DNA of 64,000 nt from Candidatus Nomurabacteria bacterium RIFCSPHIGHO2_02_40_30 (lineage in GTDB: Bacteria; Patescibacteriota; Minisyncoccia; Phycocordibacterales; UBA9973), in NCBI GenBank assembly GCA_001785445.1, contig MFTV01000016.1, positions 6,259 to 70,258 on the forward strand, in the 5' to 3' direction. Positions within the stretch are counted from its first letter, which is position 1. Every line of letters begins with the position of its first letter. Shown here in pieces: positions 1 to 63,911 of this stretch. The notes under the pieces are model-generated. The model was given only the letters and a program-made list of their open reading frames with translations. It was not told the DNA's origin and made no database searches. A program made the position numbers and the translations under genes.

Positions 1-541
1 TTATTTCTTCCACACCTTCAATATGGCTTGCGATGCGAGCAAGAGCGTAAAGCAAACTCGACAGACGATTCAAGTATTGTAAAGTTTCGGCACTCACTGT
101 GATTTTGCCTTCTTCTTTAGCAGCTATTACTCGCCTCTCGGCTCGTCTGGCTAAAGTTCTGGTGATATCAAAGACAGCTCCGTCTTTGGTCGCGCCGCTG
201 ATGAAAAAAGTTTTAATCGGTGGCAAAACTTTTTCAATTTCATCTACTATATATTCAACTTTTTTAATCTTGTCTTGTGTGATTGTTTTATCCGAGCCTG
301 CCACTTCGGCCTGCACAATAAACAAATTCTGCTGAACTTCGAGAATAATTTCGGCAAAATTCATTTTTTCTTTTTCGATGTCAAAACTTTTACCCTCCGT
401 CCTTGCTCGCGCTAGACCCAAAAAAGAATTGGTCTCATCCAGCGCACCAAGCGCTTCGGCTACGGCCGAGCTTTTAGAGATACGCTGGTTACAGCCAAAA
501 GTTTTAGTGGTGCCGTCATCTCCTTTCCTTGTGTAAAGCAT
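1..541 (-). CDS. ATP:cob(I)alamin adenosyltransferase, PduO type (C-terminal 1-2 residues and stop run off window edge)
   Basis: Reverse-strand translation from ATG at 539-541 reads MLYTRKGDDGTTKTFGCNQRI..., the characteristic PduO-type adenosyltransferase N-terminus. Not in ORF track because the stop lies outside the window. Confidence 0.75.
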   Translation of the reverse strand, partial: MLYTRKGDDGTTKTFGCNQRISKSSAVAEALGALDETNSFLGLARARTEGKSFDIEKEKMNFAEIILEVQQNLFIVQAEVAGSDKTITQDKIKKVEYIVDEIEKVLPPIKTFFISGATKDGAVFDITRTLARRAERRVIAAKEEGKITVSAETLQYLNRLSSLLYALARIASHIEGVEEI

Positions 542-2863: not shown

Positions 2864-3409
2864 TTAAATTGTTTTAGGCTGAAGGGTTTTAATAAGGGGC
2901 ACGGTATATAATTTCTTTTTCTTAACCAGATAACTGTATATGACCGGAGAGAGAATAAACGCAAATGATACATTGCCAACTAGATGTAGAATGGTGAATG
3001 GAATTTGCCCAACAAGTGCAACCAAGATTGGTTGGTCAAAAAATAACGGACCGGTTAATAAGCCGGTAAAAGCGTCAAAAAATAACGTCCCTAAAATTGC
3101 AAAATAAACAAAATTCTTTCGGGACGGCTCGCGATTCTTAAAGTAATAGGCTGATGCATAGCCAACAACTCCATAAGAAGCTGAAGTGAGCATTGTCCAC
3201 TTGCCCAATGTTCCTGTCGCCAAGTCGTAGAGAATAATACTTAAAAAAGCGAAGAAAAATCCAACAGATGCGCCATACGCTTTGCCGAAAGGCATAACCG
3301 TAGACATTATTGGTTCGATATTCGGAGCGCGAAAAGGAAGAAGTCGAAAGAGGAGGCATCCAAATATGCCGAGAGTGAATTTCAGCCAATTTTTTTTGTA
3401 CGGAGTCAT
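2864..3409 (-). CDS. Small polytopic membrane protein, ECF-transporter S-component-like (possible vitamin/B12 uptake)
   Basis: About 6 predicted TM segments in about 180 aa. TATAAT lies about 9 nt upstream of the Met at 3409; the longer ORF to 3493 is probably an over-extension. The substrate assignment is only from neighbouring B12 genes. Confidence 0.4.
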   Translation of the reverse strand: MTPYKKNWLKFTLGIFGCLLFRLLPFRAPNIEPIMSTVMPFGKAYGASVGFFFAFLSIILYDLATGTLGKWTMLTSASYGVVGYASAYYFKNREPSRKNFVYFAILGTLFFDAFTGLLTGPLFFDQPILVALVGQIPFTILHLVGNVSFAFILSPVIYSYLVKKKKLYTVPLIKTLQPKTI

Positions 3410-3543
3410 AGCTAAGTTATTATACACGAGAAGAGTGCCCTTGTGTAAAGTGGATAACTCTAATTTTTTAGAGAAAATTACAAAACAAAACAAAGAAAAA
3501 TTCTTGTCAAAAAATATGGTCAGAAAGCTATGTATAAGTGGGT

Positions 3544-3617
3544 ATTTTTAGTGTCCGTCCTCTTGGATTCGAACCAAGGACCCCAGAGGTATAAGCTCTG
3601 TGCTCTAACCAACTGAG
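3544..3617 (-). tRNA. tRNA-Ile with anticodon UAU
   Basis: Cloverleaf read by hand: acceptor CCGTCCT/AGGACGG, D arm GCTC-AGTTGGTTA-GAGC, anticodon stem CAGAG/CTCTG with loop CTTATAC (34-36 = TAT), T arm CTTGG-TTCGAAT-CCAAG, discriminator A. Confidence 0.7.
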
Positions 3618-3638
3618 CTAAGGACGGAAGATTGACTA

Positions 3639-9404: not shown

Positions 9405-9995
9405 TTAAATCTTGTATTCAGCTATTTTATCTTTTTTCACCAGAGCAATTACATCTTCCAAGAGCTTTTTGGGGTCTCCTCCTACAACAATTTTCGTATT
9501 AGGACGATGACTTTTTTCTATAATTTCCTCAAGCTGACCTCCCATCTCCCATGGTCCTTCAAAAATACCGATGGGTTTATTGTCTTCAAAGGCAATGGTA
9601 AATTCGTGAATAGTGCCGATACGTCCGCACCCGCAAATGACTGCATCACTCGAGCGAGTGAGGAGGATGTCGCGGCCGGCATACCCAAAGCCTGTATACA
9701 TAATTAAATCCATATAATCAAGCGGGAGCTTATAAACTTCCACATGCTCTTTTTCTGACGCCGCCGGTGATACGCCGATAGAAACTCCGCCTACTTCTTT
9801 CAGTCCCATCGCGACCCAAAGCGGAAAACCAGTTGTTGCTCCTGTTACCAGCACTGCCCCTTGGCGAGCAATCTCGCGACCGAGTTCTTTGGCCTTCTCT
9901 AATGCATCGAGACCGCAATGACCGGTCTCCGCCGCCCCAGAAACACAGATTTTTATCTGGCTGTGTCCGTGTTTAGTATTTAAAATAGATTCCAT
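9405..9995 (-). CDS. LOG/TIGR00725-family Rossmann-fold protein
   Basis: GAVLVTGATTGFPLWVAMGLKEVGGVSIGVSP...ICGCGRIGT pattern. Start trimmed to MESILNTK because the longer ORF overlaps the repeat element. Confidence 0.55.
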   Translation of the reverse strand: MESILNTKHGHSQIKICVSGAAETGHCGLDALEKAKELGREIARQGAVLVTGATTGFPLWVAMGLKEVGGVSIGVSPAASEKEHVEVYKLPLDYMDLIMYTGFGYAGRDILLTRSSDAVICGCGRIGTIHEFTIAFEDNKPIGIFEGPWEMGGQLEEIIEKSHRPNTKIVVGGDPKKLLEDVIALVKKDKIAEYKI

Positions 9996-10017
9996 GGAAA
10001 TATTATAGCATAATTGT

Positions 10018-10174
10018 GAAACTCGTCGAAGGCGCACTTTTTAGAAAGCCTTGCGCAGGAAATTAGAAAATAAAGAAAGTATTCTTTCTATTATTTTCTT
10101 GATTGACGAGGTTTCGCTCCGCAAGCTTGCGGAGATAGATTGCTTTATAAAAAGTTGTGCCAAGAAAGAGTTTC
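10018..10174. repeat. MITE-like intergenic element, copy A (7-bp terminal inverted repeats GAAACTC/GAGTTTC)
   Basis: Shares two near-identical blocks with copy B at 16981-17100, including the perfect 9-bp-stem palindrome CTCCGCAAGCTTGCGGAG. Copy A has a 56-bp internal insertion relative to B. Confidence 0.7.
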
Positions 10175-11551
10175 TTAGCAGTTAAGTGTCACGCTCTCCC
10201 CTTGCTCCGGCGCGTAAGCATTAATGCCTAAATTGTCGCGCAGTTTCTGCACTAAAAACAAAGCTCCCTTCGGCTCCCCCATGACCACAAAAACCTTTTT
10301 AACTGAATCTTGCATATCTTCGACAAAGTTAATTAATTCATCCGAATCTTTATGTCCCGAGTATCCTGAAATTGTGACAACGTGTGCTCGAACTACCACA
10401 TCTTCCCCTGTTATACGGACAGTCTTTACTCCCTCTTGAATTAAACGCCCCGGAGTGCCTACAGCCTGATAGCCGGTTAGAAGCAGGGTATTGTTGGGGT
10501 CCGGCAAGTAATGTCTTTCATGGTGCACAATGCGTCCCCCTGTGGACATGCCGCTCCCAGCGATAACTATTTTAGGATTTGGCACATTGCCGATCATTTT
10601 CGACTCTTCTGACTTCAGAGTACTATGCAGTCCCGAAAAATCAAATAAATACTTGTCGCTCTTCATCGCCTTTTGAGCATTTTCGTTGAAATAACTTTTA
10701 TATTGTTTAAAAACTTCAGTTAAACGAATAGCGAGTGGTGAGTCGAGGAAAATAGGCATAATGGGTATTCGGTTATTTTCCACCAAAGCATTAAGTTCAA
10801 AAAGAAGTTCCTGCGAGCGTTCGAGTGAAAAAGTGGGTATGATAAGTGTTCCCTTTCTTTTGTAGTTGTCTTCAATTATTTCCTCTAATAATTTCCTGCG
10901 GTCATCCCTAGACTCATGATTTCTGTCACCATACACAGACTCCATTACCAAATAATCCACACCGGCAACTTTTTCAGTATCCGGCAGGATCGGTGAAGGA
11001 CTGTTGCCCAAATCTCCGGTAAAAAGAATTTTCTTGCCATTATAAACAAACAAAATCATAGCGGAACCTAAAATATGACCGGCGTTAAAAAAAGAAACTT
11101 CCAGACTAGAAGTTATCTTTATTTTTTCATGATACTCAAAACCTTGCCAGAGAGATAAAGCCAGCTTAACATTCTCCGGCGTGTAAATTTTATCCAACCC
11201 CAAGTCTTTATTTTTCTGCAGTATCTGCATAGTGTCCTCGAGCATCGGCAATGCCAGCCCCTTGGTTGGCAGAATAGAATAAATTTTTCCGCGAAAGCCT
11301 TCACTGATGAGTTTGGGGATGCGGCCCAAATGGTCCACATGCGCATGAGTAATAAAAAGGATGTCCACTTCTTTCGGGTTATAAGTAAATGGGTCCCAGT
11401 TAATATCGTCTGCCAATTTTTCCCCTTGAGTCAGCCCACAGTCAACCAATATTTTTTTACCGTCGGCCTCAAAAAGGAAATTCGAGCCCGTGACTGAGCC
11501 TGTTCCCCCGTAAAAAGTTATTCTGACTGTTTTATTTGCTGTTTTTCCCAT
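10175..11551 (-). CDS. beta-CASP family MBL-fold ribonuclease (RNase J/TTHA0252-like)
   Basis: HAHVDH metallo-beta-lactamase motif and beta-CASP region. About 458 aa without the RNase J C-terminal domain. Confidence 0.7.
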   Translation of the reverse strand: MGKTANKTVRITFYGGTGSVTGSNFLFEADGKKILVDCGLTQGEKLADDINWDPFTYNPKEVDILFITHAHVDHLGRIPKLISEGFRGKIYSILPTKGLALPMLEDTMQILQKNKDLGLDKIYTPENVKLALSLWQGFEYHEKIKITSSLEVSFFNAGHILGSAMILFVYNGKKILFTGDLGNSPSPILPDTEKVAGVDYLVMESVYGDRNHESRDDRRKLLEEIIEDNYKRKGTLIIPTFSLERSQELLFELNALVENNRIPIMPIFLDSPLAIRLTEVFKQYKSYFNENAQKAMKSDKYLFDFSGLHSTLKSEESKMIGNVPNPKIVIAGSGMSTGGRIVHHERHYLPDPNNTLLLTGYQAVGTPGRLIQEGVKTVRITGEDVVVRAHVVTISGYSGHKDSDELINFVEDMQDSVKKVFVVMGEPKGALFLVQKLRDNLGINAYAPEQGESVTLNC

Positions 11552-11904
11552 AAATAAAGAATAGCACATAACCCACCTAATAAATCAAAGAATATATCTG
11601 AAGCAGTATCAACTATATTAAACTGTTCCTTCGCGATAATATTCAAAAAGAATTCGAAAGCCTCCCATAATACTCCAATTAATAAAACACCTAAAATAAC
11701 AGTTAGAATTTGCTTCAAAAAAAGATTTTCATTGTAAAAAACATACAAGAAAAAAAGCCCTACCCAAAAGCCACTTAAAAAGTGCATGATTATGTCAAAA
11801 TACCAAATGGTAAAATACCAATAAAACTCTTGCGCTATTAAATTCAGTATAAAAAGAAAAAACATCAGAAACACTAGATGTTTTAAAATCCTTTTCCTAT
11901 TCAT
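11518..11904 (-). CDS. Small membrane protein (VanZ-like motif D-x3-D-x2-GG, uncertain)
   Basis: 128 aa, 4 TM. WEAFEFFLN...DTASDIFFDLLGG near the C-terminus. Confidence 0.4.
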   Translation of the reverse strand: MNRKRILKHLVFLMFFLFILNLIAQEFYWYFTIWYFDIIMHFLSGFWVGLFFLYVFYNENLFLKQILTVILGVLLIGVLWEAFEFFLNIIAKEQFNIVDTASDIFFDLLGGLCAILYLWEKQQIKQSE

Positions 11905-11929
11905 AGCAACATTTTAGCACATTTCTAAG

Positions 11930-11950
11930 AAAAAACCCCGCGCGACGGGG
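11930..11950 (-). terminator. Rho-independent terminator (CCCCG-tcgcg-CGGGG then T6) about 25 nt upstream of the 11904 start codon
   Basis: Perfect 5-bp GC stem followed by TTTTTT on the minus strand. Confidence 0.6.
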
Positions 11951-12084
11951 TGCCTTCTTAGGACTATTTCTAATGTATTACCGTAGCTCAAAGCTAAGTG
12001 GGTGCTAGACGCGTGAGGCCAAGACCAAAAGCGATCGAAGCTCCCATAAAATAGTGTTCTAGGTAATAATTGGAAATAACCCTA
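11951..12084 (-). ncRNA. Candidate small RNA or cis-regulatory leader (function unknown)
   Basis: Minus-strand TTGCCT-16 nt-TATACT promoter at 12090-12117; about 155-nt transcript ending at the terminator above, with no ORF. Sits between the HAD hydrolase stop and the membrane-protein start. Confidence 0.3.
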
Positions 12085-12170
12085 CTTAAAGTATAGCAAG
12101 TATAAAAACTAAGGCAACTAGACAAGAATAATTTTCTGTTTTTGAATGAGATTGCAACTAAAAATGCCTA

Positions 12171-12764
12171 TTACGGCATATATTGCTTCATTTTTTCTTT
12201 GAAATCTTCAAAAGATGTGTAAAGTTCTGTCTGTATGCCAAAATCTTTCGCTCCTTGTATGTGTCCGGCTGTGTCGTCCCAAAATAATATTTCTTCTTTT
12301 TGTATATTTTTTAAATCTTCAAATATTTTTAGGAAAAATTCTTGATTTGGTTTTTTGTGCCCTAAATGAGCAGAGGAATATGTCTTATCAAAACTATTTT
12401 TGAAACCCATCTTGTTGAGCATATACTCAAAACGGTACCTTTCGTTGTTAGTAGCTAAAAAACATAATATTCCTTTATGTCTTAAACCTTGTATATACTC
12501 TACCAATTCTGAATTTATCTTATGTTCACGCTCAAACCAATATTCCATAAAAGCGTCTAGGCCTTTATTCCAGCCCCAGAGAGTTAAATAAGGGGAAATG
12601 GTTTCTTTTAAGTCACACTTACCCACTAAACAATCTTGAAACGGTCCATTGAAGAATGGGAGAGTTTTTTCTATAGTAATTCCGTAGTCTTTCTCAAGAG
12701 CGACACTAAATCTCTCTTGATTTGTCAGTAAACCATCGGCGTCAAAAATAACTACTTTTATCAT
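12171..12764 (-). CDS. HAD-superfamily hydrolase
   Basis: VIFDADGLL DxD motif. 197 aa. Confidence 0.8.
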   Translation of the reverse strand: MIKVVIFDADGLLTNQERFSVALEKDYGITIEKTLPFFNGPFQDCLVGKCDLKETISPYLTLWGWNKGLDAFMEYWFEREHKINSELVEYIQGLRHKGILCFLATNNERYRFEYMLNKMGFKNSFDKTYSSAHLGHKKPNQEFFLKIFEDLKNIQKEEILFWDDTAGHIQGAKDFGIQTELYTSFEDFKEKMKQYMP

Positions 12765-12775
12765 TAGAAAATATT

Positions 12776-13360
12776 TTACTCATCCACCCCAAAGCGCTTA
12801 TAGTCGTATGTTGTACTATTGCCAAACCAGTGCTTGATTTCGTGTTCCGCTTCTTCGGGAGTTTCTGAACAGTGCATGATATTCATCACTGCTCGCTTTT
12901 CCTTATTAGCCATAGCCGGAGAATCAATAGAGAAGTCTCCACGAATAGTGCCCACGGCTGACTTATAAGGCAATGTATCACCTGCAATCTTTCTAACCAC
13001 ATCTACTGCATGTGTACCCTGGACTACCATTTTCACCAGTGGAGCTGACTTCATATAGTCAATGAGCCATTTTCTTATTTCAGGGCCAATTTTAGAAGTA
13101 TCAGTCGTCCCAAAATCTGCCAGCATATCATAGCCGTACTTTTCGTACGTAGACTTAGTTTTCTCTCCAAGTCTGGTAATCCACGCTTCGTCTTTTGGAT
13201 AATGATCGTTGAGCTGTTCATGTTCCGGTTGAAACATCTCAAGCGCTACAACTTTAAGATCTCGTCGCTCAAATCTGCTTATGACTTCGCCTATTAACCC
13301 TTTCCTAACCCCATCAGGTTTAATCATGACATATGTCTTCTCTTCCTTTGGATGTTTCAT
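12776..13360 (-). CDS. ndk: Nucleoside diphosphate kinase (long form)
   Basis: KTYVMIKPDGVRKGLIGEVISRFE and NIMHCSET match NDK signatures. Confidence 0.8.
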   Translation of the reverse strand: MKHPKEEKTYVMIKPDGVRKGLIGEVISRFERRDLKVVALEMFQPEHEQLNDHYPKDEAWITRLGEKTKSTYEKYGYDMLADFGTTDTSKIGPEIRKWLIDYMKSAPLVKMVVQGTHAVDVVRKIAGDTLPYKSAVGTIRGDFSIDSPAMANKEKRAVMNIMHCSETPEEAEHEIKHWFGNSTTYDYKRFGVDE

Positions 13361-13405
13361 ATTTGGGTATTCTAGCAGAAAAAATTACTTTTGCAAAATT
13401 AAAAA

Positions 13406-16189
13406 TTACTCCATACTCTTATACCTGCCCATGATTTCGGCTTCTACTTCGGCGCGGTCGCGACCGTATTTTATATAAGAAAGTTCTTTCAAGCTGTCTA
13501 CTATACCTACAGTACCCTTTTCAGGGGCTAAAGTTTTCAAATTAAAAGGCTTGGTCGGCTGGCCATTGACCAGCATGCTCATGTAGGCATTGTAATTATC
13601 AAGTTTAGTTATATCTTGGGCCGTAAATTGAGGCTTAAATTTCGGCTCGAGAAAACTCGCATCTTCAGTGCCCACGCGGAATACCGCCATAGAGCCGACA
13701 TTGCCGAAAACAGCATTTTTAATATTTTCTTCCAATTGGGTAATATATTGATGAGCAATGTTAAGAGAAAGCCTGTATTTGCGAGCTTCAGACAAGATAG
13801 AAGCAATAGAATCAGTGGTAACATTCTGGAATTCGTCAATGTATAAATAAAAATCATTCATGGGTTTACCGAACATATCCACGCGCGAGAGCGCCGCCAT
13901 TTGAATCTTGCCCACCAGCACCAAACCAATCAAATTCGCATTAATATCTCCGAGCCTGCCCTTGGAAAGATTAACCAAGAGAATCTTTTTCTCATCCATT
14001 ATTTTACGAAAATTAAAAACAGAGTTCTGCTGCAGCACTACCGGACGCATAATGTCGTTGGAAATAAAATTATCAAATTTTGAAGAAATATACGGCACGA
14101 AGTTTGCCAAAGACTGGTCGCCTGTCGTCTGTTCGGCCGAAACCCAGAATTGTTTGATGATAGGATTCTGGCATCTAGCTAATTTCAAATCTCGAAATTG
14201 TTTATCAGCCAGCACTCTGGTAATCTCTAAGAGAGTCGAGCCCGACTCCGGATCCTCCATTACCAGAAAGGCGCTGTTTCTGAAATATTGTTCGAACATT
14301 GCCCCGCCACCGACTTTCATATCAAAAAGTTTGTTGAAGATTCCCATCATTTCATTTACCACGAAAGTTTTCTGCTCCGGATATTTCGGATCATACTCAA
14401 GCATATTTAGCCCAATAGGACGAGCTGTATAAGCAGGGTCGAAATATATTACATCATCAATACGTTCTTTTGGAATTCGCGACAAAATAGTCTGAATGTC
14501 TGTGCCGTGCGGGTCAATATAACAGCAACCGTCACCATTCTTGATGTCCTGCGTAATCATATTGAGCATAATATTGGTCTTGCCGGTGCCCGTCTGGCCT
14601 ATGCAATAGAAATGCCGCATCCGGTCTTCCCGAGCCATGTGGATTTCCGTGTCTTTGCCTCGGTAACTATTAACCCCTAAGACTATGCCGGCAGTACCCA
14701 TCTCAAGTGGCGCAGGGGCAATACCAGCCTTGGCTTCTTTCAGTTGGGGCTGGCTGCCTATGCCTATAGGGAAATGAAATACCGAAGCCAGCTCTTTCAA
14801 ATTCATAGGTAAAATTTTATCAGGTGAAAAAGAACGGTAGGAAAAGTCATGGAAAAGTTTTTTCAAAATACTGCCCTGAGCTTTTTCGAAAACAAAAGAT
14901 TGACTGGCGGCTTCGGAAAATTGATTAAAGGAGGACTCTATCTCGGTTAGTATCGCTTCTGCCCGCTCAATGCTCTCACCGGAAGCAATGACGCGAATAT
15001 TAGCCTTCATGATAGTGCTTTTCATCTTATTGCCTATTTTTTCGGTGGCGCCTTCATCCACCGCTTTTCGGCCCGGAGTGTATTTTTCATCTTTTTCCCC
15101 CTTTTTTTCTTTTACACCAAAAAGAAGCTCTTTGCCAACGGAGAGGAAAGCTTTATGAAATTTATAAAAATTATCCGACGCATGTTTGACAGACATACCA
15201 CTTTTTACGTCATCTAGAATCATATGGAATTCGTTTATGAATTTATTGCCCGCGGGCGCCACTACGAGCTGGATCGCGGCGCCTTCGCCTTTGGTCTTTA
15301 ACTTAGAGAAAACATTTAGTATCGTATTCATGGGGTCATGATCTATATTGTCGTAAGTCTTGATAGGCATAACTTCACGCTGTGAGAATGCGCCATAGGC
15401 TCCAGCTGAACCGCCTTTTTCGTTAAAAATATTATAGTCATCCGTAACTTCGCGGATTTTAGCATTATGATAAAAAGCTAAAATTTGTTTTTCAAAAAGT
15501 GAAAGATGTTTATTCGGAATTCCGGCATAGACAACCACTTCATCACTTTGGTTGCCAAGCGCAACTTCAAGAGTGAAGTAAATTTCTTTGGCATTACTTT
15601 TGCCTTCGGAAATAGACTGCATTCCTGCGTAAAATTGCTCCATCGCGCCGATGAATTCTTTAAAGCCTTTTGACTTGTCGGCTTCGTCCATCGGTGGTGG
15701 CAAAGTTATTTCAAAAAGGGTCATATGCAGAGACTTATACATGGGTGTACCTTCCTTGAAACCAATTTCTACTTGACCTGTTTTAAGATACTGAATCAAG
15801 ATTCTATGGAAATCGTCATCCACATGCGGGTTACCCATGGATTCTACAACTGCAAGCGCATTTTTAACCCCTTTTGTTATGACAATACCCAGAAGTTCTT
15901 CCATCACAGCATCATGTGGCTCGGGTTTCAGAGCCAGAACTATGTCTTCTGTTTGTTTTTTTTCTAAAATACTATTTTTATGTATTACCTCTTCTATGGG
16001 TATATTCTTGTATGCGCCTACCACGTCCTGCACTGCATTGTCTTTGGCATTCTCAAAGTGGCCTAGTGTTACTAGTTCTTCTTCGCGCTTTCTAACATGC
16101 GCGCGCAAATAGTCGAGCTCTTCTTCTGGAGTCCTAAACTTCGGCATTTCCCTAAAAAATGACGGATGCATTGCTCTTAAATTATACAC
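13406..16189 (-). CDS. Large P-loop ATPase, VirB4/TraG/HerA (AAA_10/DUF87)-like C-terminal half with uncharacterised about 500-aa N-terminal half
   Basis: 927 aa. Walker A GQTGTGKTNIML, Walker B YLYIDEFQNV, distal ARKYRLSLNIAHQ motif typical of VirB4/TraG-type ATPases. Confidence 0.55.
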   Translation of the reverse strand: MYNLRAMHPSFFREMPKFRTPEEELDYLRAHVRKREEELVTLGHFENAKDNAVQDVVGAYKNIPIEEVIHKNSILEKKQTEDIVLALKPEPHDAVMEELLGIVITKGVKNALAVVESMGNPHVDDDFHRILIQYLKTGQVEIGFKEGTPMYKSLHMTLFEITLPPPMDEADKSKGFKEFIGAMEQFYAGMQSISEGKSNAKEIYFTLEVALGNQSDEVVVYAGIPNKHLSLFEKQILAFYHNAKIREVTDDYNIFNEKGGSAGAYGAFSQREVMPIKTYDNIDHDPMNTILNVFSKLKTKGEGAAIQLVVAPAGNKFINEFHMILDDVKSGMSVKHASDNFYKFHKAFLSVGKELLFGVKEKKGEKDEKYTPGRKAVDEGATEKIGNKMKSTIMKANIRVIASGESIERAEAILTEIESSFNQFSEAASQSFVFEKAQGSILKKLFHDFSYRSFSPDKILPMNLKELASVFHFPIGIGSQPQLKEAKAGIAPAPLEMGTAGIVLGVNSYRGKDTEIHMAREDRMRHFYCIGQTGTGKTNIMLNMITQDIKNGDGCCYIDPHGTDIQTILSRIPKERIDDVIYFDPAYTARPIGLNMLEYDPKYPEQKTFVVNEMMGIFNKLFDMKVGGGAMFEQYFRNSAFLVMEDPESGSTLLEITRVLADKQFRDLKLARCQNPIIKQFWVSAEQTTGDQSLANFVPYISSKFDNFISNDIMRPVVLQQNSVFNFRKIMDEKKILLVNLSKGRLGDINANLIGLVLVGKIQMAALSRVDMFGKPMNDFYLYIDEFQNVTTDSIASILSEARKYRLSLNIAHQYITQLEENIKNAVFGNVGSMAVFRVGTEDASFLEPKFKPQFTAQDITKLDNYNAYMSMLVNGQPTKPFNLKTLAPEKGTVGIVDSLKELSYIKYGRDRAEVEAEIMGRYKSME

Positions 16190-16974
16190 TAAACCTTCGT
16201 CAAAATCTCTGGATCATTTTCTGTAATCAATATTGTGTGTTCAAAATGGGCGCTTCGTTTGCCATCAGCAGTGTGAAATGTATAGCCATCTTTATCTAAA
16301 GTTACATTTTTTGTGCCATTGTTGAGCATCGGCTCGATGGCTATGACCATCCCTGGCACAAGCTTGGCGCCTGTCCTGGCTTTGCCAAAATTCGGTATAT
16401 AAGGGTCCTCATGTATGGCTCGCCCCACTCCATGCCCAGCCAAGACTTCCACAATGCCGTATTTCTTTTTCTCTGATTTTCCTTTTGAACGAACAAACTG
16501 CTCTATGGCGTAGCCTATGTCCCCCACGGTGTTGCCAACTCTCGCCATATTTATACCCACTTGTAGAGCTTGCTCTGTCACTGCCATAAGCTCCATGCTT
16601 GCAGAGTTTACCTTGCCTACAGGCGCAGTGAGTGCCATGTCCGTAAAAAGCCCTTTGTGTTTTACCCCTAAATCAATAGACACAATATCTCCCTCTTTTA
16701 AAATTCTGTTTCCTTTAGGAATACCATGAACAACTTCGTCGTTGACTGACACACATAGTGATGCAGGGAACGGAATCTTAGCTCCTTCTGGTTTATAATT
16801 TAGAAATGCAGGCTCATCACCCATTTCTCTAATTAACTTAAGAGCATACAAGTCTAATTCTTTCGTGGAAACCCCCACGGCAATTTTGTCCCGCACTTTG
16901 TACAGGACAGTCGCTAAACGTTTCCCGCATTCTCGCAGTATTTTTATCTCTTCTGGTGTTTTGATTATTATCAT
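16189..16974 (-). CDS. map: Methionine aminopeptidase type I
   Basis: Full-length MAP with metal-binding D/H/E residues. 261 aa. Confidence 0.95.
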   Translation of the reverse strand: MIIIKTPEEIKILRECGKRLATVLYKVRDKIAVGVSTKELDLYALKLIREMGDEPAFLNYKPEGAKIPFPASLCVSVNDEVVHGIPKGNRILKEGDIVSIDLGVKHKGLFTDMALTAPVGKVNSASMELMAVTEQALQVGINMARVGNTVGDIGYAIEQFVRSKGKSEKKKYGIVEVLAGHGVGRAIHEDPYIPNFGKARTGAKLVPGMVIAIEPMLNNGTKNVTLDKDGYTFHTADGKRSAHFEHTILITENDPEILTKV

Positions 16975-16980
16975 AAATAT

Positions 16981-17100
16981 GAAACTCGTCGCAGGCGCAC
17001 TTTTTAGAAAGCCTTTCGCAGGGCGACGGCCCGAGAAGTTCGCTCCGCAAGCTTGCGGAGATAGATTGCTTTATAAAAAGTTGTGCCAAGAAAGAGTTTC
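16981..17100. repeat. MITE-like intergenic element, copy B
   Basis: Same termini and core as copy A. Begins 6 nt upstream of the map start codon and ends 4 nt after the pyrH stop. Confidence 0.7.
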
Positions 17101-17104
17101 ATAT

Positions 17105-17794
17105 TTATGAAATTATTGTCCCTAGAAATTGCTCCCCATTTAGACACTTGGTCAAATTATCAATCGGCTTGCCGTTCATTATCATTACTTGGATGCCTTC
17201 TTTTTGCGCTACTTCCGAAGCCACTGGGTCAAATGGAGAGCTTAGCCTCGAGGTCCATTGCGCAGGTATAATTGCTCGATAATCAGCCCAAGAAATTTTC
17301 TCAATTTTTTTGGCGTCCGGATTTACCTTGGGGTCTTTATCGTAGACATAATCAATATTGGAAAGATTTATGATTTTTTTGGCCTTCAAGTGCTTGGCCG
17401 CCAGCACGGCATCCCAGTCTGTGCTTTTCCCCGGCTCGTAGGCGGAGCCTATGACTACATTTTTTTCAAAAGAAAAAGGAACACCCAAGTTGGCTATCAC
17501 TTTATTATGAGCAACATCTGCGAAAATAACACGGAGCAACTCCGCATTGAGCTTCAGTGACGCAATGCCTATCCAGTCTAAGTCTTCACTAGTCGGACTC
17601 CCAAGTTCTTTGGCCACTTTATTATACCTGCGATTAATTTCTCCTCCGCCGGTTATAATTACAAATTTTTTACGCTGATTGTTATCTTTGGCAACATGCG
17701 AAAGTATTAAAGCTTTAAATTCTTTTAAAAAATCTATGTCTATGCTGTCGGGTACTATAAGTGAGCCGCCCAGTGAAATTATTATTGTTTCCAT
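17105..17794 (-). CDS. pyrH: UMP kinase, archaeal type
   Basis: IISLGGSLI amino-acid-kinase fold N-terminus. About 229 aa, typical of archaeal-type UMPK. Confidence 0.7.
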   Translation of the reverse strand: METIIISLGGSLIVPDSIDIDFLKEFKALILSHVAKDNNQRKKFVIITGGGEINRRYNKVAKELGSPTSEDLDWIGIASLKLNAELLRVIFADVAHNKVIANLGVPFSFEKNVVIGSAYEPGKSTDWDAVLAAKHLKAKKIINLSNIDYVYDKDPKVNPDAKKIEKISWADYRAIIPAQWTSRLSSPFDPVASEVAQKEGIQVMIMNGKPIDNLTKCLNGEQFLGTIIS

Positions 17795-18974: not shown

Positions 18975-19016
18975 TATGTTTCAATCAAAAATACTTTTGA
19001 ACAACTTCTAACTTCT

Positions 19017-19050
19017 GTCGTGAAATCACGCATATGCGTGATTTCACGAC
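19017..19050. repeat. 34-bp perfect palindrome P1 (GTCGTGAAATCACGCATATGCGTGATTTCACGAC)
   Basis: Perfect inverted symmetry, checked base by base. 37 bp downstream of the PaaX-like gene stop. Confidence 0.9.
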
Positions 19051-19621: not shown

Positions 19622-19628
19622 ATGTATG

Positions 19629-19660
19629 TAGTGAATTCTAGCATATGCGTGATTTCACTA
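19629..19660. repeat. Imperfect palindrome P2 (shares 18-bp GCATATGCGTGATTTCAC with P1)
   Basis: Located 8 bp upstream of the PaaX-like start codon. Likely operator or cassette boundary. Confidence 0.8.
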
Positions 19661-19775
19661 CAAGAGAAAATGGAACGCAGATGAAGAGAGATTAATTTTT
19701 ATTGAAAATAGAAAAAGGTGTCGGCAACCTTTTTCAGATTACGCAACACCTTTGATATTTCTGCCGAATTTTTCT

Positions 19776-20631: not shown

Positions 20632-21414
20632 ATGAAGGAACAATTAATAAAAATCAAAGAATTATTGAAAAATAGTGGTTTTTTAGACAAAGAAATAGCT
20701 ATATATTTGACTATTTTGGAACTTGGCAGAGGCACTGTGGCAGAGATATCTCGAAAAGCAGGCATTAATCGCTCGACTGGCTATGTGATTTTAGACAGTT
20801 TGGCTGGCAAGAACTTAGTAAGTATTTCCGGCAAAGAACCGAAGCAAGAATATGTAGCCCTTTCCCCTTCCAACCTTGTTGAGTACTTAAATAGGGAAGC
20901 ATCCAAACAAAAAAAGCTCACAGAAAGTGCAAGAGAGATTTTGCCAGAGCTGACTTCTATATACAATGTCGGAGACAGACCAAAAGTATTTTTTTACGAA
21001 GGTCTCGCTGGACTAGAACATGTGTATGAAGACTCGCTAACATCAAGTGGAGATATTTATTCCACTTCCACATATGAGGAAATGCACGAGACTCTGCCAA
21101 AATATTTTTCTACCTATTATGAACGCAGAGCCAAGAAAAAAATTTTCGTTCACACCTTTGTGGCTGATACTCCGCTCGCCCGAGAAAGAAAAGCGAACGA
21201 CATAAAAGAGTATCGCGATACTTCTCTCATTCCGCAAGATCAATTCCCTGTCCCAACTGACATAGAAATATATAACAATAAAGTTATGATTGCTTCCTGG
21301 AAAGAAAAGCTTGGCATCATAATTGAATCAGAAGAAATTGCCACAACCTTAAGAAGCGTATTCAAACTCGCTCTAATTGAAGCAAAGAAACACGATAAAA
21401 TTTTAGAGAATTAG
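20632..21414 (+). CDS. TrmB-family transcriptional regulator
   Basis: N-terminal wHTH (LTILELGRGTVAEISRKAGINRSTGYVILDSLAGKNLV) and a TrmB-type C-terminal domain. 260 aa. Confidence 0.7.
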   Translation: MKEQLIKIKELLKNSGFLDKEIAIYLTILELGRGTVAEISRKAGINRSTGYVILDSLAGKNLVSISGKEPKQEYVALSPSNLVEYLNREASKQKKLTESAREILPELTSIYNVGDRPKVFFYEGLAGLEHVYEDSLTSSGDIYSTSTYEEMHETLPKYFSTYYERRAKKKIFVHTFVADTPLARERKANDIKEYRDTSLIPQDQFPVPTDIEIYNNKVMIASWKEKLGIIIESEEIATTLRSVFKLALIEAKKHDKILEN

Positions 21415-21447
21415 TCGTGAATTTTCGCATATGCGAAAATTCACGAC
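21414..21447. repeat. 34-bp perfect palindrome P3 (GTCGTGAATTTTCGCATATGCGAAAATTCACGAC)
   Basis: Same outer arms and CATATGCG core as P1. Inner positions differ but remain self-complementary. Overlaps the TrmB stop codon. Confidence 0.9.
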
Positions 21448-36399: not shown

Positions 36400-38580
36400 T
36401 TATTTTCTGGCAGCAATTATGGTCTCGGCGACATTGTTTGGCACAATGTCATAGCGGAAGAATTCCATTGTGAATGACGCTCGGCCTTCGGTCATAGACC
36501 TTAGACCGGTCATGTAGCCGAACATTTCAGAGAGGGGCACGATAGCTCGGATGACTTTATTCATCCCACGATCTTCCATCCCCTCAATAAGGGCGCGCTT
36601 GCTTGAGAGGTTGCCGGTGACGTCACCCATGAATTTGTCCGGAGTTACCACTTCCACTTTCATCATCGGCTCTAGGATTACTGGGTTAGCTCTCTTACAC
36701 GCGTCCTGCACAGCCATGGAGGCGGCAATTTTGAAAGCCATTTCATTGGAGTCAACTTCGTGGTAACTTCCGTCCCAAAGTTCCACAGAAACATTTACCA
36801 TTTTAAATCCGGCCAATATTCCACGGTCTAGTCCTTCCTTGAAACCTTTTTCACAAGGAGCAATATATTCCTGCGGAATAACTCCACCTTTAATAGTATT
36901 CACAAATTCGAAGCCGACAGACCGCTTGGTATTTTTCGGCAAATCTTCCAACTCTTCTTTAGTCAAAATTTCCATTGGCTTAACTTTGATCTTTACGTGT
37001 CCGTAGTTTCCGCGTCCACCGGACTGCTTGATATATTTTCCTTCAGCTTCACTGGTGCCACTAATTGTCTCACGGTAGGCTACTTGAGGTTTGCCAACAT
37101 TGGCTTCCACGGTAAATTCACGCTTCATACGATCCACAATAATTTCTAAATGAAGTTCTCCCATGCCGGCAATGATAGTCTCGCCTGTTTCTTGGTCAGT
37201 AGATACTTTGAAGGTTGGGTCTTCTTGCGCCAGTCTGTTTAAAGCCATACCCATTTTTTCTTGGTCGGCTTTGGTCTTCGGCTCGATGCGAAGAGAGATA
37301 ACTGGTTCTGGAAAGACAATTCTGTCTAGAATAATTGGTTTATCTTCATCACAAAGAGTGTCGGATGTTATGGTATCTTTAAGTCCTACTGCTGCCGCTA
37401 TTTCTCCAGCAAAAACTTTTTTAACTTCTTCCCGGTCGTTGGCATGCATTCGCAGTATTCGGCCGATGCGTTCTTTGTTGCGAGTGCGAGGATTATAAAC
37501 ATAACTACCAGCAGAAAGAGTTCCGGAATAAACTCGGAAGAAAATAAGCTGACCAACGAATGGGTCCGTAGCCACTTTGAAAGCAAGCGCTGAAAATGGT
37601 TCAGAATCAGATGCTTGTCTTACTATAGGTTGTTCTGTATTTTCATCAATACCAGTAATAGGTGGGATGTCGGTCGGAGCTGGTAAATAATCCACAACTC
37701 CATCGAGCACGAGCTGAACACCTTTATTCTTCAAAGCAGAGCCGGCAAAGACTGGAAAGATTTCATTTGCAATCACGGCCTTGCGTAGAGTTTTCTTCAA
37801 GACATCAACATCTGGAACCATGCCTTCTAAGTATTCTGTCATCATCACATCATCCGTCTCAACAATTTTTTCTACAAGGTCATTGCGAAAACCTTCTGCA
37901 ACTTTTTTCATATCTTCTGGCAAAGAACTTAAGTCTTTTTCGACAACAGTGTTCCCCATCTCGCCTTCGAAGTAATATGCCTTCATGTGAAGCAGGTCAA
38001 CAACTCCTTCGAATTTGTCCTCAAGACCGATAGGTATCTGCATGCGAACTGCTTTCTTGGAAAGTCTGTCTAAAATAGTTGCATAAGAATGTTCAAAAGA
38101 TGCGCCAGTACGGTCTAACTTATTTATGAAACAAATACGAGGCACTTTCGCTTCATCAGCATAGCGCCAATTTGTCTCGGATTGTGGTTCTACGCCAGCT
38201 ACCCCGTCAAAAACGACAACTGCGCCGTCGAGCACACGCAAAGAACGCTTTACCTCTACGGTAAAGTCTATGTGTCCCGGAGTGTCGATGATATTGAAAC
38301 GGTGTTTAAATTCATTCTTTGCACCCGCCTTCGTCAAGACTTCGGCGGGCACGTATGTCGGAGTCCAGAAACAAGTCACTGCGGCAGAAGTAATAGTAAT
38401 TCCCCGTTCTCTTTCCTGTTCCATCCAGTCGGTGGTAGTTTCTCCGTCATGCACCTCACCTATTTTGTGTGATACTCCGGTATAAAAAAGCACACGCTCG
38501 GTCGTCGTAGTTTTGCCGGCATCAATGTGCGCAATAATTCCAATATTTCTAACTTTTTCTAGAGGATAATCTCGTTCCAT
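36400..38580 (-). CDS. fusA: Elongation factor G
   Basis: AHIDAGKTT, 726 aa. Confidence 0.95.
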
Positions 38581-54064: not shown

Positions 54065-54871
54065 CTATCGTATCTCGTAAGTTATCGTCACATCCGAGCT
54101 GATGGTATTCTCCCCTTTAGGGATTACAGCAGGAGTAGATGCCCCGTATGCTCCGTCTTCCATCATATTAGCCTTGCCATACATAATAGGATAGTTCTCA
54201 GACTCATTGAAATCTATAATTTTCACCAAACTAACACCTAAATCTTTGGCTAAAATTTTTGCTTTGCTTTTAGCTTCATCAATTGCCAGTTTTCTAGCTT
54301 CTATTTTTAATGCGTCTTCGTCGTCAATAGAAAAATTCGGACCACTTAAATTTGAAACACCGACAGTGCCTAAGCCTTGCATAATGGCTCCAACATCATC
54401 TGTATTCCTTACCTTTACAGTAATGCTTTCAGAAGAAATGTAGCCAGTTAGTATTTGTTTGCCATTCCCACAATCATACATCCCTCCCTCTATCCCAATT
54501 TGTGGACACATCTTACGCACATAATCATATTTTGGATAAAAAGAGCTATCAGTAGTTTTAATATCTTTCTCATTTACATTTCTTGTTTTCAAAAAATCCA
54601 ACGCTTTCTTCTCAACAACAGCCACTCCTTCCTGCGCTTCCTTTACCGTTTTACTTTCTTTGGATATTGTAAAATAAACACTGGCAATATCCGGTACGGC
54701 CTGCACTTCTCCGTGACCTGATATGACAATAGTGCTTACATTTACATTCCCCAAGATGCTGTAAGATTTAACTTCAGACAAAAATTTTGCTGCAAAATAA
54801 AGAGACAATATTATCAAGAGACCGAGTAAAGCCCTGTAGAGATTTGTTTTATTTTGTTCTGGTATTTCCAT
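54065..54871 (-). CDS. SIMPL-domain (DUF541) protein
   Basis: Signal anchor plus SIMPL-like repeats. Confidence 0.65.
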   Translation of the reverse strand: MEIPEQNKTNLYRALLGLLIILSLYFAAKFLSEVKSYSILGNVNVSTIVISGHGEVQAVPDIASVYFTISKESKTVKEAQEGVAVVEKKALDFLKTRNVNEKDIKTTDSSFYPKYDYVRKMCPQIGIEGGMYDCGNGKQILTGYISSESITVKVRNTDDVGAIMQGLGTVGVSNLSGPNFSIDDEDALKIEARKLAIDEAKSKAKILAKDLGVSLVKIIDFNESENYPIMYGKANMMEDGAYGASTPAVIPKGENTISSDVTITYEIR

Positions 54872-54966
54872 CCCGTTAGAAGTTATTAAAAATAATTTTC
54901 ATACCACAATTCCCGCTAGTGAACTTCTAACGGGATCCATATTTATAATTGTACACTAAGATTTTT

Positions 54967-55980
54967 TTAAATCAAATTAACTTCCGCAATAAGCTTCAAG
55001 CCAAATTTTGCAAAAACTGAAGCAATTATTTGTTCGGCTAAATTTTTTATTTCTGCCCCACTGGCGGCGCCATAATTGACTAAAACCAACGCCTGCTTTT
55101 CGTGCACGCCTGCATTGCCTACTCTTTTTCCTTTCCAGCCGGCCTGTTCAATTAGCCATGCTGCGGGGATTTTGGTCATTTCATCTTCTTCGAAGTGCGG
55201 CGCATTCGGGTACTGCTTAAAAAATTTAGCCGCTTTATTTTTCTGTAAAAATACATTCTTGAAAAAACTTCCTGCGTTCGGGATGAAAGCTGGGTCAGGC
55301 AATTTACTACGACGTATGGCCGAGACAGCATCACTGATGTCTCTTGAGCTCTTTACTTGTATTTTATTTTTTTCTAAATATTCTTGCAGAACTTTATAGC
55401 TGATATTTTTCTTTTCTTTCTTAGAGAGTTTAACAGTGATAGCTGAAATAAAATACTTTCCTTTTAACTTATTTTTAAAAACGCTGTCTCTGTAACCCAA
55501 TTCACATTCTTCTTTGGTAAAAATTATTTTCGCAGTACTTTGTATGTCATATACTTCGATATTTTCCAAAACATCTTTAAGTTCCGCGCCATAAGCTCCG
55601 ACATTCTGCATGGGCGCAGCCCCGACAGTGCCGGGAATCAGTGATAAGTTTTCTATCCCCCAATACCCCCGCTTTGTGGCAAAGTTTACAAGGTCGTGCC
55701 AAATTTCTCCTCCCAAAGAACGGACCCAAACATTTTCAGGGTTTTCCCTTAGAATCTCTATTCCTTTTAGTTTATTTAAAATAACAATACCGTTAAAATC
55801 ACGAGTAAATAAAACATTGCTTCCCCCTCCTAAAAAAAATTTTGGGTTATCTTTAAAACAACCAGACAAAAAAAGATCTTTCAAGTCAGATTCTTTTTCA
55901 AGTATGAAGAAAAACTTGGCGTGAGCAGATATACCTAAAGTGTTCAATGTGGTCAAGTCATAATTCTCTAAAATTCTCAT
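54967..55980 (-). CDS. murB: UDP-N-acetylenolpyruvoylglucosamine reductase
   Basis: FAD-binding FLGGGSNVLF and MurB C-terminus. Confidence 0.9.
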   Translation of the reverse strand: MRILENYDLTTLNTLGISAHAKFFFILEKESDLKDLFLSGCFKDNPKFFLGGGSNVLFTRDFNGIVILNKLKGIEILRENPENVWVRSLGGEIWHDLVNFATKRGYWGIENLSLIPGTVGAAPMQNVGAYGAELKDVLENIEVYDIQSTAKIIFTKEECELGYRDSVFKNKLKGKYFISAITVKLSKKEKKNISYKVLQEYLEKNKIQVKSSRDISDAVSAIRRSKLPDPAFIPNAGSFFKNVFLQKNKAAKFFKQYPNAPHFEEDEMTKIPAAWLIEQAGWKGKRVGNAGVHEKQALVLVNYGAASGAEIKNLAEQIIASVFAKFGLKLIAEVNLI

Positions 55981-63698: not shown

Positions 63699-63801
63699 AA
63701 AATTTGTGGCTACAAATAATTTCTCGCCGTCGCTCGAAATTTTCGCAGCCCGCCCCTCGTGGTTTTGCGTGTTCGCAAAACATCACTGCGGTCGGCACAA
63801 A

Positions 63802-63833
63802 AGTTAGAAAAATAAAGCAGTTTATTTTTCTAA
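63802..63833. terminator. 14-bp-stem hairpin flanked by T-runs on both strands (bidirectional terminator)
   Basis: GTTAGAAAAATAAA-gcag-TTTATTTTTCTAAC. Confidence 0.55.
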
Positions 63834-63839
63834 CTTTTG

Positions 63840-63911
63840 TGCCCCCGGCAAGAATCGAACTTACATTAGAAGGTTAGAAACCTTCTGTTCTATCCATTAA
63901 ACTACGGGGGC
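63840..63911 (-). tRNA. tRNA-Arg (TCT)
   Basis: Acceptor GCCCCCG/CGGGGGC, anticodon loop TTTCTAA. Confidence 0.8.

Follow-up and report, generated by a model that had tools for sequence, protein, structure and literature searches.

The DNA analyzed here (the window) is a stretch of 64,000 nucleotides of contig MFTV01000016.1 from Candidatus Nomurabacteria bacterium RIFCSPHIGHO2_02_40_30, in which two short spacers between minus-strand genes contain copies (A and B) of one and the same non-coding element. Copy A separates an RNase J-like gene from a LOG-like gene, and copy B separates pyrH from map (Table 1). The 42-nt block at their 5' end has two mismatches, the 61-nt block at their 3' end is identical, and a repeat search aligned both copies over 65 nt at 98% identity and 54 nt at 91%. 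Both are bounded by (T)GAAACTC...GAGTTTC and contain the palindrome CTCCGCAAGCTTGCGGAG. They are 6.9 kb apart, with housekeeping genes (map and NDK among them) in between, and their flanks are unrelated. A 35-nt pattern from the 5' block and a 30-nt piece of the 3' block were each found exactly twice in the window with up to three mismatches, where chance expectation was 0 (100 shuffles), and the covariance model described below retrieved no further copy in the 64 kb. A weak repeat match at 38095-38131 was considered as a third copy and attributed to chance, as it lies inside the EF-G gene. An earlier note, made from the letters of this DNA alone, had singled out these two segments, and its positions, palindrome, GAAACTC/GAGTTTC ends and gene context were all borne out by sequence and annotation. 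Incidentally, three NCBI metagenome-assembled genomes (MAGs; including GCA_001787075.1, MFVI01000001) and a JGI contig are 100% identical to the window over stretches of 15-21 kb, and proteins of the window are indexed in more than 120 sample blocks, so the organism is either unusually widespread or repeatedly sampled.

Both copies fold into one shape, in which a closing stem (P1, ca. 32 nt per arm) leads to a three-way junction with two arms, P2 and P3. The folding energies of the two copies are -50.1 and -55.8 kcal/mol on the plus strand and -42.7 and -48.8 kcal/mol on the minus strand, with z scores of -4 to -5.8, i.e., both strands fold stably. P1 carries a conserved purine-rich internal loop with YGUYGMA as its 5' strand, P3 is a 7-bp hairpin with an ARYA loop, and P2 has a GNCG loop followed by GAG(A/C)AG. 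It is in P2 that the copies differ: copy B has a short GGGC-GACG-GCCC hairpin on a stem with an internal loop, and copy A has an AT-rich hairpin of ca. 20 bp. The earlier note was right that the middle segments differ but not that they are unrelated, as they are two alternative forms of the same arm, each recurring in other genomes. Similarly, the 7-bp terminal inverted repeats that it described are present, but they are merely the outermost conserved portion of P1. The outer helix of copy B runs 10 nt into the flanks, where TCATAAATAT pairs with ATATTTATGA, and this extension takes in the stop-codon region of pyrH and the start-codon region of map. A tertiary pairing between the GACG of the P2 loop and a CGUC of the P1 internal loop was discarded, with no covariation and two violations.

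Table 1. The two copies of the element in the window, their parts and the adjoining genes (CM, covariance model)
Feature	Position	Strand	Remarks
Copy A	10018..10174	+	Plus is the folded strand, antisense to both neighbors; 157 nt, long-P2 "A-type"; CM 98.8 bits, E 2e-18
Copy A P1 5' arm	10018..10049	+	
Copy A extended P2	10051..10112	+	Base (A)UUAGAAAAU / AUUUUCUUGAU conserved; tip AAGAAAG-UAU-UCUUUCU covaries; followed by GACGAGG
Copy A P3	10117..10134	+	Palindrome CTCCGCAAGCTTGCGGAG; same sequence as copy B P3
Copy A P1 3' arm	10142..10174	+	Ends 1 nt ahead of the RNase J-like gene's TAA
Beta-CASP/metallo-beta-lactamase (RNase J-like) gene	10175-11569	-	TAA at 10175-10177; copy A 1 nt from the TAA
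LDcluster4 (LOG-like) gene	9405-9995	-	ATG 22 nt from copy A
Copy B	16981..17100	+	Plus is the folded strand, antisense to pyrH and map; 120 nt, short-P2 "B-type"; CM 162.7 bits, E 3e-32
Copy B P1 outward extension TCATAAATAT	16971..16980	+	Locus-specific; complement of the map start codon at 16972-16974
Copy B P1 5' arm	16981..17012	+	GAAACTC GTCGCA GGCGCAC TTTTTA GAAAGC; contains internal-loop strand YGUYGMA
Copy B P2	17014..17038	+	UUUCGC-A-GGGC GACG GCCC-GAGAAG; short hairpin, GNCG loop, internal loop
Copy B P3	17043..17060	+	CTCCGCA AGCT TGCGGAG; 7-bp stem, ARYA-type loop
Copy B P1 3' arm	17068..17100	+	GCTTTATAAAAAG TTGTGCC AAGAAAGA GTTTC; near-invariant purine strand AAGAAAGA and conserved G.U partner
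Copy B extension partner ATATTTATGA	17101..17110	+	Complement of the pyrH stop codon at 17105-17107
AA_kinase (pyrH-like) gene	17105-17794	-	Copy B 4 nt past its TAA
map	16189-16974	-	Copy B 6 nt before its ATG

The element is not restricted to this genome. A 19-mer from the 5' arm, searched by exact word among 185,579 species-representative genomes, matched at 10 loci in 9 other MAGs. A 21-mer from the 3' arm, searched independently by exact word in metagenomes, matched at 25 loci, of which 23 are genuine; neither scan returned the source contig. With a covariance model built on 8 sequences and elements accepted at E<1e-12, we recovered 30 distinct elements, i.e., the two copies of the window and 28 further homologs. 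The homologs are found at unrelated loci (designated here by L numbers) of Candidatus Nomurabacteria / Paceibacterota genomes and groundwater metagenomes, and the elements are 120-182 nt long. The long-P2 form (A-type), 37 nt longer than the B-type, is present in copy A and six other elements, and 8 of its 26 pairs show compensatory changes among these seven. The locus between L31 and RF1 (L31-RF1) has both forms.

The fold is strongly supported by covariation, the analysis recommended in the earlier note for the conserved blocks. RNAalifold found 50 pairs in the 8 sequences, 20 of them compensatory, and among the 30 distinct elements, changes on both sides are seen in 30 of the 50 pairs. Standard pairs are formed in 94.4% of the cells of the 30 elements, a share that drops to 35-51% on sliding the 3' partners by 1-3 columns, and the covariation score is 0.452, compared with 0.05-0.10 for slid partners and 0.147 for shuffles; none of 500 shuffles reached the observed values. 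In other words, the element is a conserved structured RNA-type fold with compensatory changes above the controls. Helices 4 and 5, which make up P2, are paired in 99% and 98% of the cells (pair 49-118, for example, is U-A in 17 elements and G-C in 12), and their loop is constant as GNCG. Helix 6 (P3) is paired in 98% of the cells and all its 7 pairs vary on both sides, giving variants such as CUCCGCA/UGCGGAG, CUGGCAC/GUGCCAG and AUUUUUC/GAAAAAU around a loop that remains ARYA. Even the outer helix (helix 1), 77% paired, changes on both sides at all 8 pairs, being locus-specific yet complementary. In 28 of the 30 elements, AAGAAAGA, which forms the 3' side of the internal loop in P1, shows no change. 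G.U and U.G pairs occupy 85 cells of the core helices and A.C and C.A only 4, with pair 47-121 being U.G in 29 of the 30 elements and pair 29-167 being G.U in 23. This asymmetry indicates that the folded strand is intrinsic to the element (the plus strand in the window) and independent of the orientation of the neighboring genes.

A second, more distant subfamily of 6 sequences was also picked up by the covariance model. Its core of ca. 70 nt is nearly invariant (GGGGUUUYGAG-GGCUGACGAGCC-GAGAAYUUC-GGAUUUUUU..AAAAAAUCC-GUACCG), and its arms, of 20-25 bp, are perfectly complementary and locus-specific. One of these copies occupies the adk-map spacer of L042. L014 (JBAZVG010000001.1, a contig of 813 kb) has three subfamily-2 copies plus a truncated subfamily-1 copy at the edge within 8 kb, with an element in nearly every spacer of that locus, which suggests that some Paceibacterota genomes may carry the family at high density. 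At the L31-RF1 locus of L006 (MFUY01000017.1, ca. 3168-3320), the 5' arm of the element is intact, and P2, P3 and the 3' arm have been replaced by a short fold-back and a different 24-bp hairpin (AAGCGTGAAGTTTCTTGTAATTTT ... AAAATTACAAGAAACTTCACGCTT) around a GC-rich CCCGG-UAAU-CCGGG hairpin; this sequence may be a decayed copy or a third element type. In the window itself, a hairpin at 63787-63850 (30-nt arms, 90% complementary, 4-nt loop) abuts the 3' end of a tRNA-Arg (63839-63911, minus strand). One of its arms, GGCACAAAAGTT, resembles the P1 arm, and the covariance model gives no match there.

Elements are located in co-directional, convergent and divergent spacers. P1 usually starts 0-7 nt from a stop codon; at L011, L023 and L034, the element fills exactly the gap between two convergent stop codons, and at L028 and L014, it lies between divergent gene starts. 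In co-directional spacers, about 10 loci are antisense and 4 sense (orthologs collapsed), a difference that is not significant. The relatives also provide empty sites, found in five related loci that were fetched via map homologs of 77-83% identity. In L044, L047, L048 and L049, the pyrH-map junction consists of TAA, 2-10 nt and ATG without any element, and the RNase J-LOG spacer is empty in these four and in L042. Hence, both copies of the window were gained in this lineage, in a region that was tightly spaced in the ancestor. At four orthologous loci, with gene identities confirmed by Pfam, the element has opposite orientations in different species. At pyrH-map, it is antisense in the window and sense in L016; at L31-RF1, antisense in L008, L009, L010 and L012 and sense in L040; at the 3' end of UvrD, sense in L013 and antisense in L029; and at the 3' end of an M48 peptidase gene, sense in L035 and antisense in L019. 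A single inversion by recombination within P1 does not fit L016, where the pyrH stop directly precedes a 12-nt remnant (GAAACTCTTTCT) of the opposite orientation and then a full element that has an outer helix of its own. Copies A and B share the same 3' half, including P3, and have different P2 forms; together with other mosaics found in other genomes, this pattern suggests that copies within a genome may exchange modules by recombination.

Two observations concern the surroundings of individual copies. L021 has inverted long-P2 copies at 279-459 (minus) and 3286-3459 (plus) around the genes of a GmrSD_N+HNH nuclease and an EcoRI-type adenine methylase. Contig L023 is homologous to L021 on one side only, so the element copies stand at the border of a defense-gene island, an arrangement that might be a composite transposon. 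In the window, the LOG-like gene has an extended -10 box (TGCTATAAT; minus strand, 10002-10010) 6 nt before the ATG and no Shine-Dalgarno sequence. This arrangement is kept in L042, L044, L047, L048 and L049, at 6-10 nt from the ATG, pointing to an mRNA that is leaderless or nearly so. In the window, the -35 region of this gene has been replaced by copy A.

We tentatively interpret the element as a new family of non-autonomous, single-strand-structured insertion elements, similar in kind to ERIC and REPIN, gained twice in this lineage. The single-stranded fold would be the unit of selection, and the element would spread or be exchanged between spacers by way of a single-stranded intermediate (single-stranded DNA [ssDNA] or RNA), on which an enzyme supplied in trans, with no gene nearby, would act, as has been proposed for REPIN, ERIC and YPAL-type repeats. 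In the window, there would have been two insertions into a tightly packed operon region, both antisense, one separating pyrH from map and the other separating the RNase J-like gene from the LOG-like gene's promoter. In the operon mRNA, the element would be present as its complement, still a long hairpin (-43 and -49 kcal/mol), with the insert looped out, which is probably why insertion was tolerated. In the mRNA with copy B, the stem would bring the UAA of pyrH face to face with the AUG of map at its base, much like the ancestral coupling over 2-10 nt. A secondary, putative cis effect on mRNA processing or stability is plausible. As for the growth of P1 into the flanks, it could come from selection for looping the insert out of the operon mRNA or from template-switch "perfection" of quasi-palindromes during replication, a known mutational process.

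Several known repeats offer points of comparison. ERIC (also IRU or RU-1; 127 bp) is, like the present element, a small, non-coding, intergenic imperfect palindrome found in either orientation, whose transcript forms a long stem by pairing of its 5' and 3' ends, in which only ca. 7 bp at the termini pair contiguously; its sequence shows high conservation between species, and it has size variants created by internal insertions and has no known transposase (PMC2229807). In contrast, the TA termini and target duplication listed for ERIC (PMC2229807) are not demonstrable here, and the three-way junction, the conserved loops, the compensatory changes and the different phylum (Patescibacteria, or candidate phyla radiation [CPR]) set our element apart. 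When copy A was compared by blastn (word 11) with 5,426 complete E. coli genomes, nothing matched at E<=0.01. The locations of ERIC reportedly differ between species, a point credited to Hulton et al. 1991. YPAL (RU-2; Yersinia, 168 bp) lacks TA termini and has internal inverted repeats and empty/filled sites, and its targets span or adjoin dyad symmetry, resembling the locus-specific complementary flanks of our element; unlike here, where none are seen, it has target duplications of 3-26 bp (PMC2229807). Compared by eye, the two sequences show no resemblance, the element being AT-rich and YPAL not.

The REP/REPIN sequences are said (Bertels and Rainey 2011 and Nunvar et al. 2010 are the studies in question) to be non-autonomous intergenic hairpin repeats with intrinsic polarity, present in both orientations and devoid of terminal inverted repeats and target-site duplications. 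By the same two accounts, REPINs are thought to act as single-stranded hairpins and to persist over long periods with a single enzyme acting in trans, the RAYT (Y1 HUH) transposase that mobilizes them. However, a REPIN is an inverted doublet of short palindromic REPs. In our element, neither P1 arm is a palindrome in itself, and P2 and P3 alone form internal palindromes; it also differs by its low copy number and by the three-way junction at its tip. No RAYT gene was found in the annotated window regions. The PATEs (palindrome-associated transposable elements) of the IS200/IS605 type are likewise non-autonomous, with hairpins in one DNA strand and no target-site duplication, but each of their ends has a subterminal hairpin, and they insert beside a fixed word of four or five nucleotides; our element has two adjacent internal hairpins and no shared flanking word, and its folded strand is probably not the lagging-strand template. 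The "motif" families of non-coding RNA in Rfam are similar in that they are recognized by covariation alone and can be multi-copy and linked to mobile contexts. The bcr4-6-type repeats of the Bacillus cereus group may be a further parallel.

Part of the evidence weighs against an insertion element. No transposase was found in the Pfam-annotated ±10 kb of 9 loci, and the 30 elements have no fixed termini, no common flanking word and no consistent target-site duplication, the hallmark that the earlier note had proposed to look for; with neither termini nor duplication nor partner enzyme, we infer the mechanism of spread rather than observe it. Copy number is low, with no more than 2 exact 19-mer matches in any genome and 2 copies per 64 kb in the window. 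The GC skew of the plus strand is negative throughout the window, so the folded strand is probably the leading-strand template (if the direction of replication is read from the skew), and ssDNA transposition of the IS200/IS605 type prefers the lagging-strand template. Sequence conservation (invariant stretches, the U.G pair and the loops) is very high across species with 75-85% identical proteins, and the locus-specific outer helix at L31-RF1 has been kept in four species and the 5' arm of the element in a fifth. Such conservation seems more typical of an RNA useful to the host and under purifying selection than of a selfish repeat. It should also be noted that the counts come from an alignment fitted to a model built on the plus strand, although the wobble asymmetry is already visible in the MAFFT alignment. 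The high conservation, the low copy number, the retained outer helix and the skew make a mobile small-RNA family a serious rival.

A family of genes for a multi-copy, trans-acting structured small RNA (or a self-processing RNA), transcribed from the plus strand and duplicated, inverted and lost as other small-RNA genes are, is possible, if doubtful. P1 would then serve RNA processing or stability, and protein or tertiary contacts would be made by the internal loop, by the constant hairpin loops (GNCG and ARYA) and by the invariant U.G pair. Strong covariation in every helix, conserved loops, bulges and wobble pairs, and a strand asymmetry that does not depend on gene context agree with this, as do a conservation above that of the neighboring proteins and the persistence at L31-RF1 in several species; the two P2 forms behave as an optional variable arm. 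However, there is no conserved promoter at a fixed distance. Sigma70-like sites are no more common upstream of the plus strand (mean best score of 7.55) than on the other side (6.93), with no conserved site and no enrichment in the flanks. An internal sigma70 or sigma54 promoter was also rejected, since TTGGCAC on the minus strand has no properly spaced -10 or -12 box, and TATAAA is lost in the GCCTATCA variant. Neither is there a consistent terminator or U-run after P1 across the elements; P1 ends in an AU-rich helix. In addition, most copies are antisense in tight operons, where the ancestral pyrH-map spacer had 2-10 nt, and orthologous loci show flips in orientation and empty sites.

Searches among described RNAs do not favor a small RNA either. 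Neither window copy matched any of the 4,227 models of Rfam 15 at the gathering score, and relaxed E values gave only chance-level snoRNA, miRNA and sroB matches (E of 1-7). The closing stem, the three-way junction, CAGG...AGCAG and the AGAA/NGUC-like loop had brought a number of known RNAs to mind, but SRP RNA, 6S, Y RNA, 5S and the hammerhead, twister-sister and hairpin ribozymes had no Rfam match even at E<=10; the junction sequences vary between subgroups, and there is no equivalent of loop B. A conserved small open reading frame (ORF) or type I toxin was rejected as well, as the frames are not conserved between copies and L007 has stops in both frames checked. The ORFs of 81-83 amino acids that run through copy B (16838-17110) are artifacts.

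The insertion-element and small-RNA readings, and the cis-regulatory one considered next, are not mutually exclusive. We regard as rather doubtful a more far-reaching reading, in which the element is a mobile functional RNA of a new Patescibacteria-specific class. It could be a protein-binding small RNA or a new self-processing ribozyme, built as a three-way junction with a conserved internal loop. It would copy itself into spacers via an RNA or ssDNA intermediate, and the growth of its closing stem into the flanks would serve to loop the insert out of the host operon mRNAs.

Operon punctuation of use to the host is unlikely. Here the element would be a cis-regulatory bidirectional terminator or attenuator, an RNase III/E site, or a device for stability or translational coupling, working in either orientation. 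It is consistent with the proximity of P1 to stop codons (usually within 0-7 nt), with the convergent gaps filled exactly at three loci (L011, L023 and L034), with the complementarity of the locus-specific outer helix, all of whose pairs covary, with copy B, which pairs the pyrH stop region with the map start region, and with the stable folding of both strands. ERIC is co-transcribed with its neighbors and has orientation-dependent effects on mRNA stability (PMC2229807). On the other hand, the element also lies between divergent gene starts, and the G.U pairs track the element and not the direction of transcription. No U-tract follows the GC-rich stem; a terminator scan gave no match for copy B and one for copy A only on the minus strand, by way of a stem that includes the stop codon of the neighboring gene. 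Canonical terminators are used elsewhere in the genome (28798-28838, for example), and a terminator at the pyrH-map junction would disrupt the tight coupling that four relatives have there. The repeated promoter or terminator module that the earlier note had considered is not supported by these data, in which no promoter is conserved.

A classical MITE (miniature transposable element with inverted repeats), that is, a deletion derivative of a DDE transposon (IS630-like, for example, with a TA target) recognized as double-stranded DNA through its terminal inverted repeats, is very improbable. In its favor, the element is shorter than 200 bp, has AT-rich ends and no ORF, and shows filled and empty sites; (T)GAAACTC...GAGTTTC is common to both window copies, and the targets reconstructed for copy B, L012 and L040 are AT-rich palindromes with TA at the center. 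TA is found at each end of the outer helix in about half of the copies, but its distance from the core varies from 5 to 21 nt, so that TA...TA looks the same as a further two base pairs of an AT-rich stem; in copy A, there is neither TA at these ends nor a flanking repeat. The outer helix is locus-specific and of 5-23 bp, with RAAAYTY as its only semi-conserved motif among the 30 elements. Of the features that Delihas (PMC2229807) lists for bacterial MITEs, the small size, the lack of a protein, a long stem joining the 5' and 3' ends and filled/empty sites are found, and fixed terminal inverted repeats are not. Moreover, the strong strand asymmetry and the compensatory changes in the internal hairpins amount to a strand-specific structure, which a mechanism based on binding double-stranded terminal repeats does not predict, and there is neither a related transposase nearby nor a match in phages, plasmids or viral contigs. 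The suggestion of a MITE or repeated module was, therefore, correct insofar as the element is repeated, non-coding and hairpin-forming, to which many copies, filled/empty sites and covariation can now be added, but not in the strict sense of a MITE.

Other mobile origins were considered and discarded. An E. coli, plasmid or phage source gave no blastn match, and viral scans returned nothing or one chance match in GC-rich coding DNA. An integron attC site (RYYYAAC ... GTTRRRY) does not fit ends that read GAAACTC...GAGTTTC or the housekeeping genes between the copies. Finally, a local segmental duplication or chance similarity confined to this genome, which two copies in 64 kb at 6.9 kb from each other with an identical 3' half might have suggested and which the earlier note associated with only two copies and no conservation elsewhere, has next to no probability in view of the 28 homologs at unrelated loci, the unrelated flanks, the zero matches expected by chance, the filled and empty sites and the covariation.

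Some other features of the window deserve mention. A near-perfect palindrome of 35 nt (TGTCGTGAAATCACGCATATGCGTGATTTCACGAC; 17-bp arms and no loop) is present three times, at 19016-19050, 19627-19661 and 21413-21447, in the spacers around TrmB-like and PaaX_M-like regulator genes inserted between secY and adk; these look like putative operator sites of a dimeric regulator. A perfect 15-nt inverted repeat (ATCCCGTTAGAAGTT / AACTTCTAACGGGAT, with a 37-nt spacer) at 54870-54936, between ORFs 54065-54871 and 54967-55980, may be another structured spacer element. An 81-nt direct repeat (61853-61933 and 62318-62398, 73% identity, 465 nt apart) within ORF 61325-63031 (minus strand) is probably an internal repeat of a protein domain. 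The tRNA-Ile at 3553-3627 has the anticodon TAT (UAU), an uncommon bacterial way of reading AUA.

Patescibacteria (CPR) genomes are tiny and tightly packed, and to our knowledge, no non-coding repeat or small-RNA family has been described from them; no CPR repeat or small-RNA motif family of this type appeared in Rfam or in the literature searched. Small structured intergenic repeats of this kind are known from other phyla, and the present family is new. It comprises 30 subfamily-1 and 6 subfamily-2 sequences, with a covariance model and a well-supported fold, and shows clearly that elements were gained, lost and inverted within ribosomal-protein and translation operons that are otherwise rigid. 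With the model, spacers can be annotated and spurious ORFs avoided, such as those of 81-83 amino acids at 16838-17110 or the GTG-extended version of the LOG-like protein (210 amino acids). If the element is selfish, it illustrates how genes coupled over no more than 2-10 nt can accommodate a structured insert between them. If it is a functional RNA, it would represent a new CPR-specific class of RNA.

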